From: Nitrososphaerota archaeon
GTDB taxonomy: Archaea > Thermoproteota > Nitrososphaeria > Nitrososphaerales > Nitrosopumilaceae
Reading direction: 5' to 3'
Length of the DNA stretch: 14,657 nt
Assembly: GCA_022573895.1 (NCBI GenBank)
Contig: JACZTB010000009.1
Span: forward strand, 41,136-55,792
In this document: piece after piece, positions 3,935 through 14,561 of the stretch
How the letters are laid out: each line of letters starts with the position of its first letter
How positions within the stretch are numbered: the first letter of the stretch is position 1
Made by a program: the position numbers and the translations under genes
The notes under the pieces: model-generated
The model's database searches: none
The model's input: only the letters and a program-made list of their open reading frames with translations
Told to the model about the DNA's origin: nothing

Positions 3935-4606
3935 TTACCATATTACATGAACTAAGTCTTTGAGATTTCGTCTTGGTTTTGGGAATTTTGTTTGTTCGGG
4001 ATATCCAATGCATAACACAGAAGATGGAACCAGATCTGTTTCAATAATATCCATTACCTTTTGTTCATTAAACATACCAATCCAGATTGAGCTTAATCCC
4101 AATGCTTGAGCTGCAAGCTGAGAATATCCTGCAGCTAAAGTTGCGTCTTGTATGGCAAATTTTTTAAGAACATAATCAGGAAAATCAAATTTTACTCTAG
4201 ACGGGTTTTTGCAGAAAATCAACATAACAGGAGAATTAACATAAGGTTGATTGTTACATGCTTCAACTAGAAGTTTTTTCTTTTCTGGACTTTTGACATA
4301 AAAGATTTCAAACCCTTGATAGTTTCCAGCAGTAGGTGCAGTATCAGCTGCTGCAATAATCTTGTCTATTTTTGTAGTTTCGACTGGCTTATCTGAAAAT
4401 TTTCTTGTCGAACGTCTCTTTGCCATCACAGCAAACAAGTCAGTATCTACAATTTCAGAAGGTTCAGAAGGTTGAGAAGATCCAGAATGTAAGATAAAAT
4501 CAAGTAATTGATTTCTCACATTAGAATCAGTTGATTCTGGAGTTTCTTGTGGTTCATAGCCTTGAGGATAGATTTTATCTCCAATGTTTTTTGAAGTCAC
4601 TAACAA
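3935..4606 (-). CDS. nitroreductase-family flavoprotein
   Basis: It carries the nitroreductase N-terminal motif AKRRSTRKFSDKPV and a conserved-looking core (APTAGNYQGFEIFYV, AIQDATLAAGYSQLAAQALGLSS). The track start is TTG at 4606, which gives an unusual Ser/Pro/Glu-rich extension of about 60 aa. The first in-frame ATG is the Met just before KRRSTRKF, so the true start is uncertain. Confidence 0.8.
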   Translation of the reverse strand: MLVTSKNIGDKIYPQGYEPQETPESTDSNVRNQLLDFILHSGSSQPSEPSEIVDTDLFAVMAKRRSTRKFSDKPVETTKIDKIIAAADTAPTAGNYQGFEIFYVKSPEKKKLLVEACNNQPYVNSPVMLIFCKNPSRVKFDFPDYVLKKFAIQDATLAAGYSQLAAQALGLSSIWIGMFNEQKVMDIIETDLVPSSVLCIGYPEQTKFPKPRRNLKDLVHVIW

Positions 4607-4906: not shown

Positions 4907-4988
4907 CGCCGGGAAAGGGATTCGAGCCCCTGCACGCTTGCGCGTAGCCGTTTTCGAGACGGCCGCCTTACCACTTGGCTACCCCGGC
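4907..4988 (-). tRNA. tRNA-Ser (anticodon CGA), type II with long variable arm, no encoded CCA
   Basis: I folded the reverse complement by hand: GCCGGGG-TA-GCC-AAGTGGTAA-GGC-G-GCCGT-CTCGAAA-ACGGC-TACGCGCAAGCGTGC-AGGGG-CTCGAAT-CCCTT-TCCCGGC-G. It has a 7-bp acceptor stem (one G-U), a 5-bp anticodon stem, the loop CU-CGA-AA, a 15-nt variable arm with an ACGC/GCGT stem, and a 5-bp T stem. Total length is 82 nt. T-loop position 54 is C rather than U. This GC-rich island sits in AT-rich DNA. Confidence 0.85.
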
Positions 4989-9656: not shown

Positions 9657-9950
9657 ATGATTCAAAGAGAAGAACTAGAACAAATTTTGAATTTTGTTGC
9701 AAGTAGATGGGAAGAACTTACAAAAGATCCTGACAGTAAAAATCTTGATAATTTACCAAGTGACTTTTGGATGAATTCTGTTGGTGGAAAAACTGCAAAA
9801 AATGGATATTGGATTACAGCATTGATGTATACAGAAAATGAAGCAGATGCAGTAGCTTTCAGAGAAGTACTGTTAAGATGGCAAGCCAAAGGGAATGACA
9901 AAAATAAAGATAAAGGTCCCGATCTAATTCAAATTGGAAAAAAGAAATAG
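9657..9950 (+). CDS. hypothetical protein (97 aa)
   Basis: ATG-initiated ORF that ends 11 bp before the thyX start, so it is probably co-transcribed. I recognise no motif. The C-terminus is Lys-rich. Confidence 0.5.
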   Translation: MIQREELEQILNFVASRWEELTKDPDSKNLDNLPSDFWMNSVGGKTAKNGYWITALMYTENEADAVAFREVLLRWQAKGNDKNKDKGPDLIQIGKKK

Positions 9951-9961
9951 ACTATTAATAA

Positions 9962-11602
9962 TTGAAAAACAGCAGACAGGTATTGTCAGAGTTTTCGATT
10001 AAAGAAAAAAAGATTCTATCAGATCATTTTTCAAATACCGATGAAAATGTATTTGCAATAATTACTCCTAGACAAGTTGATCGCGGTGCATTGATGTCTA
10101 GATATAGCAGAACCAACAAAAGTATGAGACGAATTTTTCTAGATGAGTTTTTAAAAAATAAAAATAGAGGAGAAGAATTTTACAATAGAGTTCTTTTAGA
10201 ATATGGTGATGACTCTGTTGCGGAATTAGGTGAAGCACAAATTGCAATTGAAGGTTTGTCAAACATTGCAGTGAAAAAAATTGAAGATAGAAGAATAGGA
10301 TTATCTTACTTGGAAAAATCGTCAAGATATGTTACATGGAATAAAAAAGAAAAAGGAAAATATAGATTTTACAGAGATTCTAAAATTACAAAATCAAGAT
10401 TTGTAGATATGTATGAGGAAACTTGTAATTTTTCATTTGATATTTATTCCAAAAATATAGAACCGATGATAAACTATGTCAGAGAAAAATATCCTATAGA
10501 AAAATATAGTTTTAAAGATTCAACAGATGGAAAAGAAAAATCATTTTCCAAATTAAAAAATGAGATAGATGTAAAATCTGCCAGTATGATTTACAAAGGT
10601 TCAACTAAAGCTAAAGCATTAGATATTCTTAGAGGGTTATTACCCGCTTCAACTTTGACAAATGTTGGAATTACAGGTAACGGCCGTGCGTTTGAATACC
10701 TTCTAACAGTTTTAGGCTCATCTGAACTAAATGAAGAGACGGATTTAGCCTCAAAAATCAAAAAAGAGCTTGATACTACAATCAAATCATTTGTTAGAAG
10801 AGCAGATGATAAATACGGAAAAGCATTCCAAAAATATCTTAGAGATATTAAAAAAAAATCAAAATCAATCACAGCAAAAGAAATTAAACCAAAACCAACT
10901 ACTGGAATAATAACAAATCTAGTTGAACATGAATCAGAAAAAACTGCAATGGATAAAATTATTACAAGTATAATGTATGAGCAGTCGCCAAGTACATCAT
11001 ATCAAAATATTTTACAACAGGTAAAAAAATTATCAAAAGAAAAGAAAATCAAAATAATTAATGAATTTACAAAACTTCGGACAAATAGACGGCATAGACC
11101 ATCAAGGGCATTTGAAAATGTCTACTATACATTTGATTTATGTAATAATTTTGGAATGTTTAGAGACTTCCACAGACACAGAGTCTTAACTCTAGAAAGA
11201 CAACTACTAACAACTGATCATGGATATAGTATCTCAAATGAAATTAAGATTCTTGGAATTGATAAAGATTTTAAGGATTGTATGAATAAAAGCAAAGAAA
11301 CATTTGAGAAAATTAGAAAAAAATATCCTGAACAGGGACAATATGTTGTGAACTTTGCATACAATTACCCGTATTTTATGAAATTCAATCTCAGAGAAGC
11401 TTGTCATCTAATTGAATTAAGAACTGTTCCACAAGGACATGCAGATTATCGACGAGTAGCACAACAAATGTTCAAACGTATAAACAAAGTACATCCTAAT
11501 TTGAGTAAAATTATGAAATTTGTGGATTTAAAGGAGTACGACTTAGAAAGATTCGAATCAGAAAAGAGAACTGAAGAGAAGAGAAAAAACCTAAAAAAAT
11601 AG
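9962..11602 (+). CDS. thyX: FAD-dependent thymidylate synthase, long (about 546 aa) tandem-domain ThyX form
   Basis: ThyX-type motifs are split across two halves: [23 protein letters not shown] near the N-terminus, and RRHRPSRAF and [15 protein letters not shown] in the C-terminal half. The protein is about twice the size of canonical ThyX. It uses a TTG start, and there is no in-frame ATG until residue 45. Confidence 0.75.
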
Positions 11603-12043: not shown

Positions 12044-12119
12044 TCTTTTATCGTTATTGAAAAAAAATAATTTTACGATAGTTTAATTACAACACAATTT
12101 CACCAAATTTTAGAAAGAT

Positions 12120-12563
12120 ATGCCATTTGATAGAGAGAGAGAAATGTTTGATGCAAAATGTGCAGACTGTGGAAATGAATGTCAGATACCATTCAAACCA
12201 AAAGAGGATAGACCTGTTTATTGCAATGAATGTTTCCAAAAGCATAGACCAGAACAACGTGGTGGCTATGGTGGAAGATCTGGTGGCTATGGTGGAAGAT
12301 CTGGTGGCTATGGTGGAAGATCTGGTGGCTATGGTGGAAGATCTGGTGGCTATGGTGGAAGATCTGGTGGCTATGGTGGAAGATCTGGTGGCTATGGTAG
12401 AAATGACAGAGGTTCCAGATTTGGTAGAAGAGATGACAGACCAAGAGAAATGTTTGATGCAAAATGTGCAGACTGTGGAAATGAATGTCAGATACCATTC
12501 AAACCAAAAGAGGATAGACCTGTTTATTGCAATGAATGTTTTCAAAAGCATAGACAAAATTAG
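12120..12563 (+). CDS. dual CxxC-x17-CxxC zinc-ribbon protein with central (GGYGGRS)6 RGG/Gly-Tyr low-complexity linker; putative nucleic-acid-binding protein
   Basis: 147-aa ATG ORF. Residues 9-43 and 111-145 are identical: MFDAKCADCGNECQIPFKPKEDRPVYCNECFQKHR. Each has exactly 17 residues between its two CxxC pairs. Between them lie six perfect GGYGGRS units plus GGYGRNDRGSRFGRRDDRPRE. All competing ORFs at this locus translate the same repeats in other frames. Confidence 0.8.
   Translation: MPFDREREMFDAKCADCGNECQIPFKPKEDRPVYCNECFQKHRPEQRGGYGGRSGGYGGRSGGYGGRSGGYGGRSGGYGGRSGGYGGRSGGYGRNDRGSRFGRRDDRPREMFDAKCADCGNECQIPFKPKEDRPVYCNECFQKHRQN
12138..12249 (+). repeat. 112-bp direct repeat, copy 1 (encodes zinc-ribbon module 1)
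   Basis: It matches 12444..12555 at a constant offset of 306 bp. There is a single mismatch (C at 12236 versus T at 12542), which is synonymous (TTC/TTT Phe). Confidence 0.95.
12261..12401 (+). repeat. in-frame tandem repeat, 21-bp unit GGTGGCTATGGTGGAAGATCT, 6 perfect copies plus a partial degenerate 7th
   Basis: Counted directly. The six identical units span 12261..12386. They are followed by GGTGGCTATGGTAGA, which carries one substitution. Every unit uses identical codons. Confidence 0.97.
12444..12555 (+). repeat. 112-bp direct repeat, copy 2 (encodes zinc-ribbon module 2)
   Basis: See copy 1: 111 of 112 nt are identical. Confidence 0.95.
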
Positions 12564-12662
12564 TAAATTGTTTTGAACAAGTATTATACATAATTAATGA
12601 TATGAAAATCAATAGTGAAACAAGATGAACTATACTCACACATCAAAAAGGAATGAAGGATT

Positions 12663-13994: not shown

Positions 13995-14561
13995 TTGATG
14001 ACTGGCAAAACAGAGTTTCAATTAACACAAGAACAAGCAAAAAAAGCCATTGAAATGTGTCTAGAAAATGCTGAATCATATCTTAATGATGCTGACATGT
14101 ATATCTCAAATAACAAAACAGATCATTTAGCAACTCCTATTGTATTTGCAATGGAAGAAATAGGAAAAGCAAAAATTATTTATGATAAAATAGAAAACTC
14201 TAGTTCAAAAATTTCACTATCTGATAAAGATGGTATCTATGATCATAAAACAAAAGCTGAAAAAGTTAATTCATTAATTGAATTAGATGTAGGTGAAAAA
14301 ATAGCCAAGTCTCTATTATTGGGTGATGTGGACGGTTACTTAGTTGACCCATTAACCATTACGTCTTACATAAGAAAAGAAAATGAATTAAAAAATACTG
14401 GAAAAAAAGGTCATGGTATAAGACTTGCAAGTTCATATGTTGATTTTGACTCTGTCACAAGCGAACCTAAAATTGAAAAATCTTCAGGGGATTTGACTGA
14501 ACTCATAAAAAATTTGTTTGAAATTATACATGGATATCCATCTTCGTTCAATACCAATTGA
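13995..14561 (+). CDS. AbiV-like (HEPN-superfamily-like) helical protein; possible abortive-infection/defence protein
   Basis: 188-aa ORF with TTG at 13995 and ATG at 13998. The N-terminal pattern CLENAESYLNDADMYISNNKTDHLATPIVFAMEEIGKAKIIYDKI, followed by YDHKTKAEK, matches my recollection of the AbiV family (N-A-x2-L-x2-D-A...A-x-EE-x-GK, then a conserved H-x2-K). This has not been verified by any search. Confidence 0.45.
   Translation: MMTGKTEFQLTQEQAKKAIEMCLENAESYLNDADMYISNNKTDHLATPIVFAMEEIGKAKIIYDKIENSSSKISLSDKDGIYDHKTKAEKVNSLIELDVGEKIAKSLLLGDVDGYLVDPLTITSYIRKENELKNTGKKGHGIRLASSYVDFDSVTSEPKIEKSSGDLTELIKNLFEIIHGYPSSFNTN

Follow-up and report, generated by a model that had tools for sequence, protein, structure and literature searches.

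A small gene of marine ammonia-oxidising archaea encodes two identical predicted treble-clef zinc fingers joined by an arginine- and tyrosine-rich linker

In a 14,657-nucleotide stretch of a Nitrososphaerota archaeon contig (JACZTB010000009.1, positions 41,136 to 55,792 of the forward strand; hereafter the window), a coding sequence at 12120–12563 on the plus strand, stop codon included, begins with ATG and specifies a protein of 147 amino acids (16.4 kDa, pI 9.05) with a conserved MPFDRERE N-terminus. The source is a member of the Nitrosopumilaceae, and the gene lies in a Nitrosopumilus-like housekeeping region with CdvA, a double-length ThyX, the methionine sulfoxide reductase MsrB, homoserine dehydrogenase (HSDH) and FEN1 as neighbours. 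The protein has two modules of identical sequence (REMFDAKC...FQKHR) at residues 7–43 and 109–145, and the layout between them is PEQR-(GGYGGRS)6-GGYGRNDRGSRFGRRDDRP. The initial annotation described this reading frame, its two identical CxxC-x17-CxxC modules and the six perfect GGYGGRS units exactly as we found them; only the module length, given as 35 residues, had to be changed to 37. The GC content is 41% in the gene vs 32.6% across the window.

This is a conserved small gene of marine ammonia-oxidising archaea, and it encodes a genuine protein. The features of the reading frame are not due to chance because the MPFDRERE N-terminus, the modules and the linker composition recur in more than 1000 homologues. 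When the N-terminal module of the window is compared with the closest syntenic orthologues, the codon changes are mainly synonymous (seven synonymous and two non-synonymous at locus L009, eight and two at L015), and synonymous and non-synonymous changes are mixed at more distant loci. Database records do not contain the exact 147-residue product. Another contig, L032, is 99.94–100% identical to the window across 7.4 kb. Three overlapping reading frames (12087–12557 and 12193–12498 on the minus strand, and 12127–12576) were judged to be by-products of the repeats, since homologues, a match to a family and a conserved start were found for the annotated frame, the one that was searched against databases. 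A viral origin was dropped as IMG/VR gave just two weak matches, and an RNA element was dropped as the Rfam match was limited to an unrelated tRNA.

The N-terminal module is encoded at 12138–12248 and the C-terminal module at 12444–12554, both on the plus strand. Their cysteines are arranged as C-x2-C-x17-C-x2-C (C14, C17, C35 and C38; C116, C119, C137 and C140). Profile hidden Markov models assign both copies to the NCBIfam family TIGR04272 (cxxc_cxxc_Mbark; 136.4 bits against a cutoff of 36, E=1.7e-40) and to the Pfam family PF23477 (zf_Tbcl_2, 'probable treble clef zinc finger'; 134.2 bits against 27, E=1.1e-39). The purely sequence-defined CxxC-x17-CxxC family named in the initial annotation is real, and the window protein belongs to it. 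The four cysteines are invariant in 142 unique modules and also in 50 diverse family members, and the zinc fingers have 12 invariant positions. Each module carries a fifth cysteine in a CxxCGxxC arrangement (C21, encoded at 12180–12182, and C123, at 12486–12488), which is present in 141 of the 142 unique Nitrosopumilaceae modules. It is also common in Patescibacteria members, is replaced by threonine in Thermoplasmatota and is not invariant family-wide. This cysteine may serve as an alternative ligand or act as a redox-active thiol.

AlphaFold2 (AF2) models the modules with confidence: the predicted local distance difference test score (pLDDT) is 81–89 for the modules in the full-length protein and reaches 86.6 when one module is modelled with an alignment. 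Strands 10–13 and 20–23 of the N-terminal module flank C14 and C17, and a helix at residues 36–42 begins at C35/C38. The predicted fold is a treble clef, with the first CxxC in a beta-hairpin knuckle and the second at the N-terminus of a helix. This prediction, which agrees with the Pfam label, replaces the zinc-ribbon label of the initial annotation, a fold that would place the two ligand pairs in beta-hairpin knuckles of a three-stranded sheet; zinc-ribbon Pfam models also stayed below their cutoffs. We rejected an identity with ribosomal eS27 (S27e at 12.8 bits against 70 in NCBIfam and 14.9 against 24.5 in Pfam, and E of at least 0.13 for S27e entries of the PDB) and with RNA polymerase subunit P (RpoP at 9.5 bits against a cutoff of 89). 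The module has a net charge of about 0 and a pI of 6.7.

Two purified small CxxC-x17-CxxC proteins of Methanosarcina mazei (A00184 and A01980) bind zinc according to inductively coupled plasma mass spectrometry (PMC12704099). They belong to TIGR04272/PF23477 and share the domain and the cysteine spacing with the window protein, and the N-termini encoded by their cloning primers (MAFNDRN...) resemble the MPFDRERE/MSFNRDR of the window-protein family. By analogy with them, each module of the window protein would be expected to hold one Zn2+. The M. mazei proteins are shorter than 100 residues (PMC12704099), whereas the window protein combines a pair of gene-converted modules with a Gly/Arg/Tyr linker that has expanded to 65 residues.

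The linker spans residues 44–108 (12249–12443, plus strand) and ends in a family-conserved GRRDDRPR motif. The pLDDT is below 50 for residues 45–107, and the predicted template modelling score (pTM) of the whole protein is 0.26, so the linker is predicted to be disordered and the modules to have no fixed mutual arrangement. Its 65 residues include 29 Gly, 13 Arg, 7 Tyr and no Lys, giving a net charge of +9 and a pI of 11.1. This kind of composition is conserved in 129 homologous linkers, which consist of G 32.6%, R 24.2%, S 13.6%, D 7.0%, P 6.7%, Y 5.3% and F 3.6%, with K at 0.1%, aliphatic residues at 1.3% and Y plus F at 8.9%. The net charge is between +3 and +11 in every one of these linkers, and the number of aromatic residues scales with linker length (r=0.93; 0.86 ± 0.16 per 10 residues). 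Both linker ends are conserved, as the segment opens with HKPxPRSG and closes with GRRDDRPRE, and the length between the cysteine motifs ranges from 30 to 93 residues. The repeat units vary by lineage (GGYGGRS, GGGYGGRS, YGGNRGSS, GSSYGRGSSDR and others), which indicates that the linker sequence turns over while its composition stays. The exclusive use of Arg is selected, since the remaining proteins of the window contain K at 10.1% and R at 4.1%. Selection on the linker acts on composition, not on sequence.

The linker had been described as an RGG-type low-complexity segment. It is cationic, of low complexity and predicted to be disordered, and with 29 Gly and 13 Arg in 65 residues at a pLDDT below 50 it qualifies as an Arg/Gly-rich disordered segment of the kind found in RGG/RG proteins. 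By motif, however, it is not an RGG box. The definition of Thandapani et al. (2013) reportedly asks for a minimum of two RGG or of three RG motifs spaced 0–4 residues apart, and the window linker has one RGG and two widely separated RG, without clustered repeats, together with eight GR and seven [G/S]Y[G/S] motifs. Two or more RGG occur in 5 of the 129 homologous linkers, and three or more RG in 32. A more fitting description of the segment is that of a sticker-spacer linker built from [G/S]Y[G/S] motifs and Arg, and the suggested methylation of its arginines is unsupported.

The repeat structure of the gene is visible at two levels. The array that encodes (GGYGGRS)6 is a tandem repeat of the 21-bp unit TGGTGGCTATGGTGGAAGATC at 12260–12402 on the plus strand (6.8 copies, 99% matches), with a partial seventh unit after the six perfect ones, and its copy number differs among near-identical alleles. 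The modules lie in the two arms of a 122-nucleotide intragenic direct repeat on the same strand, a substrate for gene conversion or recombination, with arm 1 at 12128–12249 and arm 2, 306 nucleotides from arm 1, at 12434–12555. The arms are 96% identical over the 122 nucleotides, and the module proper differs by one synonymous nucleotide. Modules within one gene differ by one nucleotide in the window, L011 and L013 and by none in L009. Between these three orthologues and the window, 7–12 of the 35 module codons compared are different, and 7–19 differ across all compared loci. Module identity is accordingly higher within a protein (0.905) than for the N-terminal module between proteins (0.86). 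At L031, which is about 97% identical to the window, both modules carry an identical pair of synonymous changes, TGT to TGC and CAG to CAA, which attests directly to continuing gene conversion between the arms. In every lineage, gene conversion keeps the two modules alike, and they thus evolve in concert. In the three-module proteins P0004 and P0009, the entire module-plus-linker unit is repeated exactly, as unequal crossing-over between the arms would produce.

The length of the gene varies even at one location. In the orthologous slot of the order ThyX-MsrB-gene-HSDH, the product has 147 residues in L009, 143 in L013 and 102 in L011, and L014–L016 have a one-module gene of 41–45 residues only. 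The sole difference between L032 and the window is that 105 bp (5 units) of the array are cleanly deleted, which leaves one unit and a product of 112 residues, and the array of L031 has one GGYGGRS unit fewer than that of the window. These length variants are either real products of slippage and recombination or the result of collapse in short-read assemblies. It is quite possible that the variation in unit number (1, 5 and 6) and in module number (the one-module genes of L014–L016) is an assembly artefact. L032 is a k141 (MEGAHIT-style) contig and the 143-bp array is about as long as the maximum k-mer size; L014–L016 are contigs of short-read metagenome-assembled genomes, in which the identical 111-bp arms form a de Bruijn loop that can be skipped. 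Against an artefact, linker lengths form a broad continuum over hundreds of independent assemblies, some of which are complete chromosomes (L010, L011 and L013), and exact three-module proteins (P0004 and P0009) exist. In addition, gene conversion between the arms, which assemblers cannot produce, shows that the arms do recombine.

The gene appears to carry its own expression signals. A block at 12070–12119 on the plus strand is conserved in an alignment of seven loci, with the arrangement TTTACAATAGTTTAAnTA...ACC...TTTAGAAAGAT-ATG present at all orthologous loci and at the non-syntenic L010. It includes a TATA-like TTTAATTA at 12082–12089, about 31–38 nucleotides before the ATG, and a conserved short leader (...ACCAAATTTTAGAAAGAT). 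We regard this block as a putative archaeal promoter with a short leader. Directly after the stop codon, a conserved TAAATTGTTTTGA with a T-tract (12564–12577, plus strand) is invariant in five orthologous loci and is a possible archaeal terminator. With its own promoter-like block, which is also found at L010, and the T-tract, the gene looks monocistronic and has apparently moved together with its promoter. A scan for bacterial sigma-70 promoters and terminators was set aside as uninformative for an archaeon.

The gene lies directly downstream of MsrB in six syntenic loci. The ThyX-MsrB-gene-HSDH order is lineage-specific, and the gene is placed elsewhere in Nitrosopumilus adriaticus, Nitrosarchaeum, L010 and Nitrosopelagicus. 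In L001–L005 (N. adriaticus and Nitrosarchaeum) a small DUF2196 (PF09962) gene follows it on the same strand, about 80 nucleotides further downstream; a DUF2196 homologue was not found in the window or at the remaining loci. We did not use the gene neighbourhood as a clue to function because the ThyX-MsrB order is lineage-specific, the DUF2196 neighbour is found in only two genera and a Patescibacteria locus was uninformative. The neighbours show some features of their own. At L031, a 109-residue P-II (PF00543) gene (4133–4462, minus strand) is inserted between MsrB and the zinc-finger gene, at a place that matches the gap at about 12044–12068 of the window; the insertion is absent from the window and from L032. 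The ThyX homologue of the window (9962–11602, plus strand) has 546 residues, roughly double what is usual. It contains two Thy1 stretches (the best at 321–513) and shows about 90% conservation in syntenic loci. A 97-residue reading frame (9657–9950, plus strand) located between CdvA and ThyX has no Pfam match and shows 87–94% amino acid identity in four syntenic loci. A gene of the HEPN/AbiV family (abortive-infection-like) follows homoserine dehydrogenase in the window (13995–14561, plus strand) and in L032; the downstream genes of L031 are others, namely a TFIIB-family gene and a response regulator. The window also has a tRNA gene at 4907–4988 on the minus strand (Rfam RF00005, 54 bits, 82 nucleotides).

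A deep search yielded 1,048 homologues, of which the best 120 are without exception of the Nitrosopumilaceae type, with lengths of 101–203 residues; 111 of them contain two modules and 9 contain three. Several, from N. adriaticus and other Nitrosopumilus spp., already carry the annotation 'CxxC-x17-CxxC domain-containing protein'. A search with the module profile gave 6,503 cluster representatives (50% identity) at E≤1e-3, with 2–5 modules in the top matches. Judged by these sequence matches, the family is very large and spans Archaea and Bacteria. The association with low-complexity sequence that had been proposed for this domain holds across the family, with the same Arg/Gly-rich character as in the window protein; outside the modules, the top family members consist of K 15%, R 11% and G 11%. 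The architecture differs between groups. In Thermoplasmatota the modules are joined through GDRGG-type linkers, and Bathy-, Brock- and Micrarchaeota have single modules of 50–58 residues with RGFG-type leaders. Many Patescibacteria members (P0124–P0165) share one fixed layout of an RGG-like N-terminus, two or three fingers, a short, conserved helix (F/LxxLNxKLDKIL) and a long KKA/AKK Lys/Ala-rich tail like that of histone H1. In Chloroflexota and other bacteria the sister finger zf_Tbcl (PF13451) is fused to the module, with GY/S/R-rich linkers in two cases. Clostridia (P0290–P0409) have stand-alone zf_Tbcl mini-proteins of 51–82 residues, whose G/R/N-rich tails with aromatics (G 26%, R 20%, N 16%) often end in ...GGNRW. 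By their sequences, these mini-proteins appear to be a second family that combines a finger with a GR tail. The recurrence of a tiny Cys4 finger next to a basic low-complexity segment across phyla indicates a shared function of the two parts.

A Pfam scan of 50 diverse multi-module members gave only this domain and overlapping zinc-finger models, save one case with Ribosomal_S3_C, and the top matches of a search with zf_Tbcl were all stand-alone proteins of 51–82 residues. The exception is P0169 (L006:117–857), in which the C-terminal domain of ribosomal protein S3 replaces the usual Lys-rich tail behind two modules. If real, it would tie the family directly to the ribosome, but its contig measures 1,016 bp and belongs to a highly fragmented assembly, so that we rejected it as a probable chimera.

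We tentatively propose that the window protein is a multivalent, non-sequence-specific binder of RNA or single-stranded DNA, which may serve as an RNA chaperone or as a scaffold of ribonucleoprotein (RNP) or nucleoid and possibly condenses. It would be a small cytoplasmic zinc protein in which each Cys4 module folds around one Zn2+ as a treble-clef finger. The flexible cationic linker would tether the fingers, with Arg and evenly spaced Tyr/Phe as 'stickers' between Gly/Ser 'spacers', and would supply most of the affinity for RNA or single-stranded DNA. The two fingers may add bivalent contacts to the nucleic acid or to a partner. In this way the protein could act as an RNA chaperone or as an RNP- or nucleoid-organising scaffold, possibly forming condensates at high concentration.

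In FET proteins, Arg/Gly-rich and [G/S]Y[G/S] segments bind RNA and cause Tyr-Arg-dependent phase separation. This knowledge of eukaryotic RG-rich and [G/S]Y[G/S] proteins supports our proposal, as do the cationic Arg/aromatic disordered linker, the H1-like tails of bacterial relatives, the lack of catalytic domains in the 50 diverse members scanned and the confident proteomic detection of the M. mazei relatives, whose CxxC-x17-CxxC group was the highest-confidence identification across the proteomic analyses (PMC12704099). The charge of the linker (+9, pI 11.1), which contrasts with modules of about 0, the conserved linker composition with its choice of Arg over Lys, the recurrence of fingers with basic low-complexity segments in several phyla, and the conserved promoter-like block and terminator-like T-tract are further support. 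Several points weigh against the proposal. No experiment on any family member reports nucleic-acid binding, and expression data for the Nitrosopumilus protein did not turn up in literature searches. The modules themselves are neutral, and the linker is without canonical RGG/RG repeats. Sequence and profile searches against solved structures gave no solved relative, with non-significant matches to generic Cys4 sites, and Foldseek likewise gave only non-significant generic Cys4 sites. There is no conserved operon partner, as the DUF2196 neighbour is confined to two genera, and no informative domain fusion was found among the 50 diverse members and the top zf_Tbcl matches. The one-module versions, if real, would make bivalency and the linker dispensable. 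Literature searches gave no function for the thaumarchaeal protein or for either Pfam/InterPro family, and a documented unrelated function that would contradict nucleic-acid binding did not turn up.

The protein could instead be an adaptor or regulator that works through protein-protein contacts, with fingers docking onto RNA polymerase, TFB or ribosomal components and the linker as a mere flexible spacer. Docking of this kind is seen in small zinc-finger subunits of archaea, for example RpoP and eS27, and these two are the best, though weak, matches of the modules, which are neutral and not basic. The M. mazei authors suggested a transcriptional role on the grounds that one of their eight proteins carries an RNA polymerase subunit annotation and that ribbons of the TFIIB family have the same cysteine spacing (PMC12704099). 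However, the eS27 and RpoP matches are far under the family thresholds (E 0.02–0.8), and the examined loci show no synteny with transcription or ribosomal genes. A passive spacer would also not need the strict preference for Arg over Lys, the uniform aromatic spacing and the constant positive charge of the linker, and we consider an adaptor unlikely.

The linker is likewise hard to reconcile with a zinc buffer or a thiol/redox sensor, in which the Zn(Cys)4 sites and the fifth cysteine would release zinc on oxidation in connection with the neighbouring MsrB. The position directly downstream of MsrB in the six syntenic loci and the near invariance of the fifth cysteine in Nitrosopumilaceae fit such a role, and so do the 'dehydro-cysteines' seen in M. 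mazei homologues by top-down proteomics (PMC12704099) and a non-significant Foldseek match, among the top ones, to the Zn(Cys)4 redox-switch site of PerR. But the MsrB adjacency is lineage-specific and absent where the gene is placed elsewhere, the P-II gene separates the two genes in L031, and the zinc-finger gene has its own promoter-like block. Moreover, the fifth cysteine is not conserved family-wide, two zinc ions per 147 residues are a poor storage capacity, and the Arg/Tyr/Gly linker is left unexplained. A redox or storage role is therefore highly improbable in our judgement. We give hardly any credence to a general stress protectant or hydrophilin, similar to late embryogenesis abundant (LEA) proteins or cold-induced plant glycine-rich proteins, whose Gly-rich segment would shield macromolecules against cold or osmotic stress without binding any of them specifically. 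The extreme Gly content, the predicted disorder and a linker length that varies freely (30–93 residues), as expected if bulk properties matter, are consistent with it, but it does not explain the highly conserved zinc fingers with their 12 invariant positions or the strict positive charge and Arg/aromatic pattern, and no expression data support it.

Like the FET family (FUS, EWSR1 and TAF15), the window protein has a Cys4 zinc finger beside an Arg/Gly-rich disordered sequence, and its seven [G/S]Y[G/S] motifs with Arg amount to a Tyr-Arg sticker-spacer composition of the kind associated with phase separation and the binding of RNA. The two are not homologous. The window protein lacks an RRM, an SYGQ prion-like domain and a proline-tyrosine nuclear localisation signal (PY-NLS), and Pfam gave no match to RRM or zf-RanBP down to E=1. 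Its finger has the x17 spacing and a predicted treble clef, whereas the FET finger is of the RanBP2 type (C-x2-C-x10-C-x2-C), and the canonical RGG repeats are absent. Plant class IV glycine-rich proteins (GRPs) and cold-shock domain proteins (CSDPs), such as AtGRP2/CSDP, also alternate Gly-rich segments with small zinc-binding modules, and plant zinc-knuckle glycine-rich proteins are RNA chaperones. Their modules are CCHC knuckles (C-x2-C-x4-H-x4-C) combined with a cold-shock domain or an RRM, whereas Pfam detected no CCHC knuckle, cold-shock domain or RRM in the window protein.

Among prokaryotic proteins, the C(P)XCG micro-proteins of Haloferax volcanii (such as HVO_2753 and HVO_0758) are small archaeal Cys4 proteins, some of them two-fingered, and the first knuckle of the window protein, CADCG, fits their CxxCG pattern. 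There is no significant sequence relationship (PDB 8q5b at E=0.11, covering the knuckle only), and unlike the window protein they have no low-complexity linker. The zf_Tbcl proteins of Clostridia and the zf_Tbcl plus zf_Tbcl_2 proteins of Chloroflexota resemble the window protein in that a tiny predicted treble clef is followed by a tail or linker of G/R/(N,S)/aromatic residues, and in Chloroflexota zf_Tbcl is fused directly to the same module type. However, zf_Tbcl is a separate, bacterial finger family with an N-terminal position, and our searches found no literature on zf_Tbcl proteins.

The protein is less novel than the initial annotation implied. It is not a new kind of protein, as the family is catalogued, annotations of this kind already exist for Nitrosopumilus orthologues, and two M. 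mazei members have been found to bind zinc (PMC12704099). What is new is the predicted arrangement of treble clefs around a disordered linker, the FUS-like linker composition held by selection, the concerted evolution of the fingers, a possibly hypervariable valence and a 'zinc finger plus GR/GY tail' theme that crosses phyla. A bolder reading goes beyond our proposal of a multivalent nucleic-acid binder and takes the protein as a prokaryotic counterpart of FET-type condensate scaffolds. It would be abundant and phase-separate with RNA through the Tyr and Arg of the linker, its valence would be tuned at high frequency in the manner of a contingency locus by array slippage (from 1 to at least 6 units) and arm recombination (1–3 fingers), with condensate or RNA-chaperone properties being adjusted inside populations, and it would belong to a cross-phylum class of 'zinc finger plus GR/GY tail' proteins, in which its own finger accounts for 6,503 clusters at 50% identity. 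We regard this extension as quite doubtful.

The Nitrosopumilaceae version packs a FUS-like composition that tethers two folded zinc modules into 147 residues. It is a natural system of great simplicity in which to ask whether archaea possess RNA-binding or condensate behaviour of the sticker-spacer type, and the natural alleles with 1, 5 or 6 repeats and 1, 2 or 3 modules would be ready-made valence variants. The family is widespread and apparently abundant, and its members are among the highest-confidence proteomic identifications in M. mazei (PMC12704099). If the proposed function is not confirmed, the protein would be an ordinary member of an uncharacterised zinc-finger family; if it is confirmed, a widespread 'known unknown' would gain a role in globally abundant nitrifiers.

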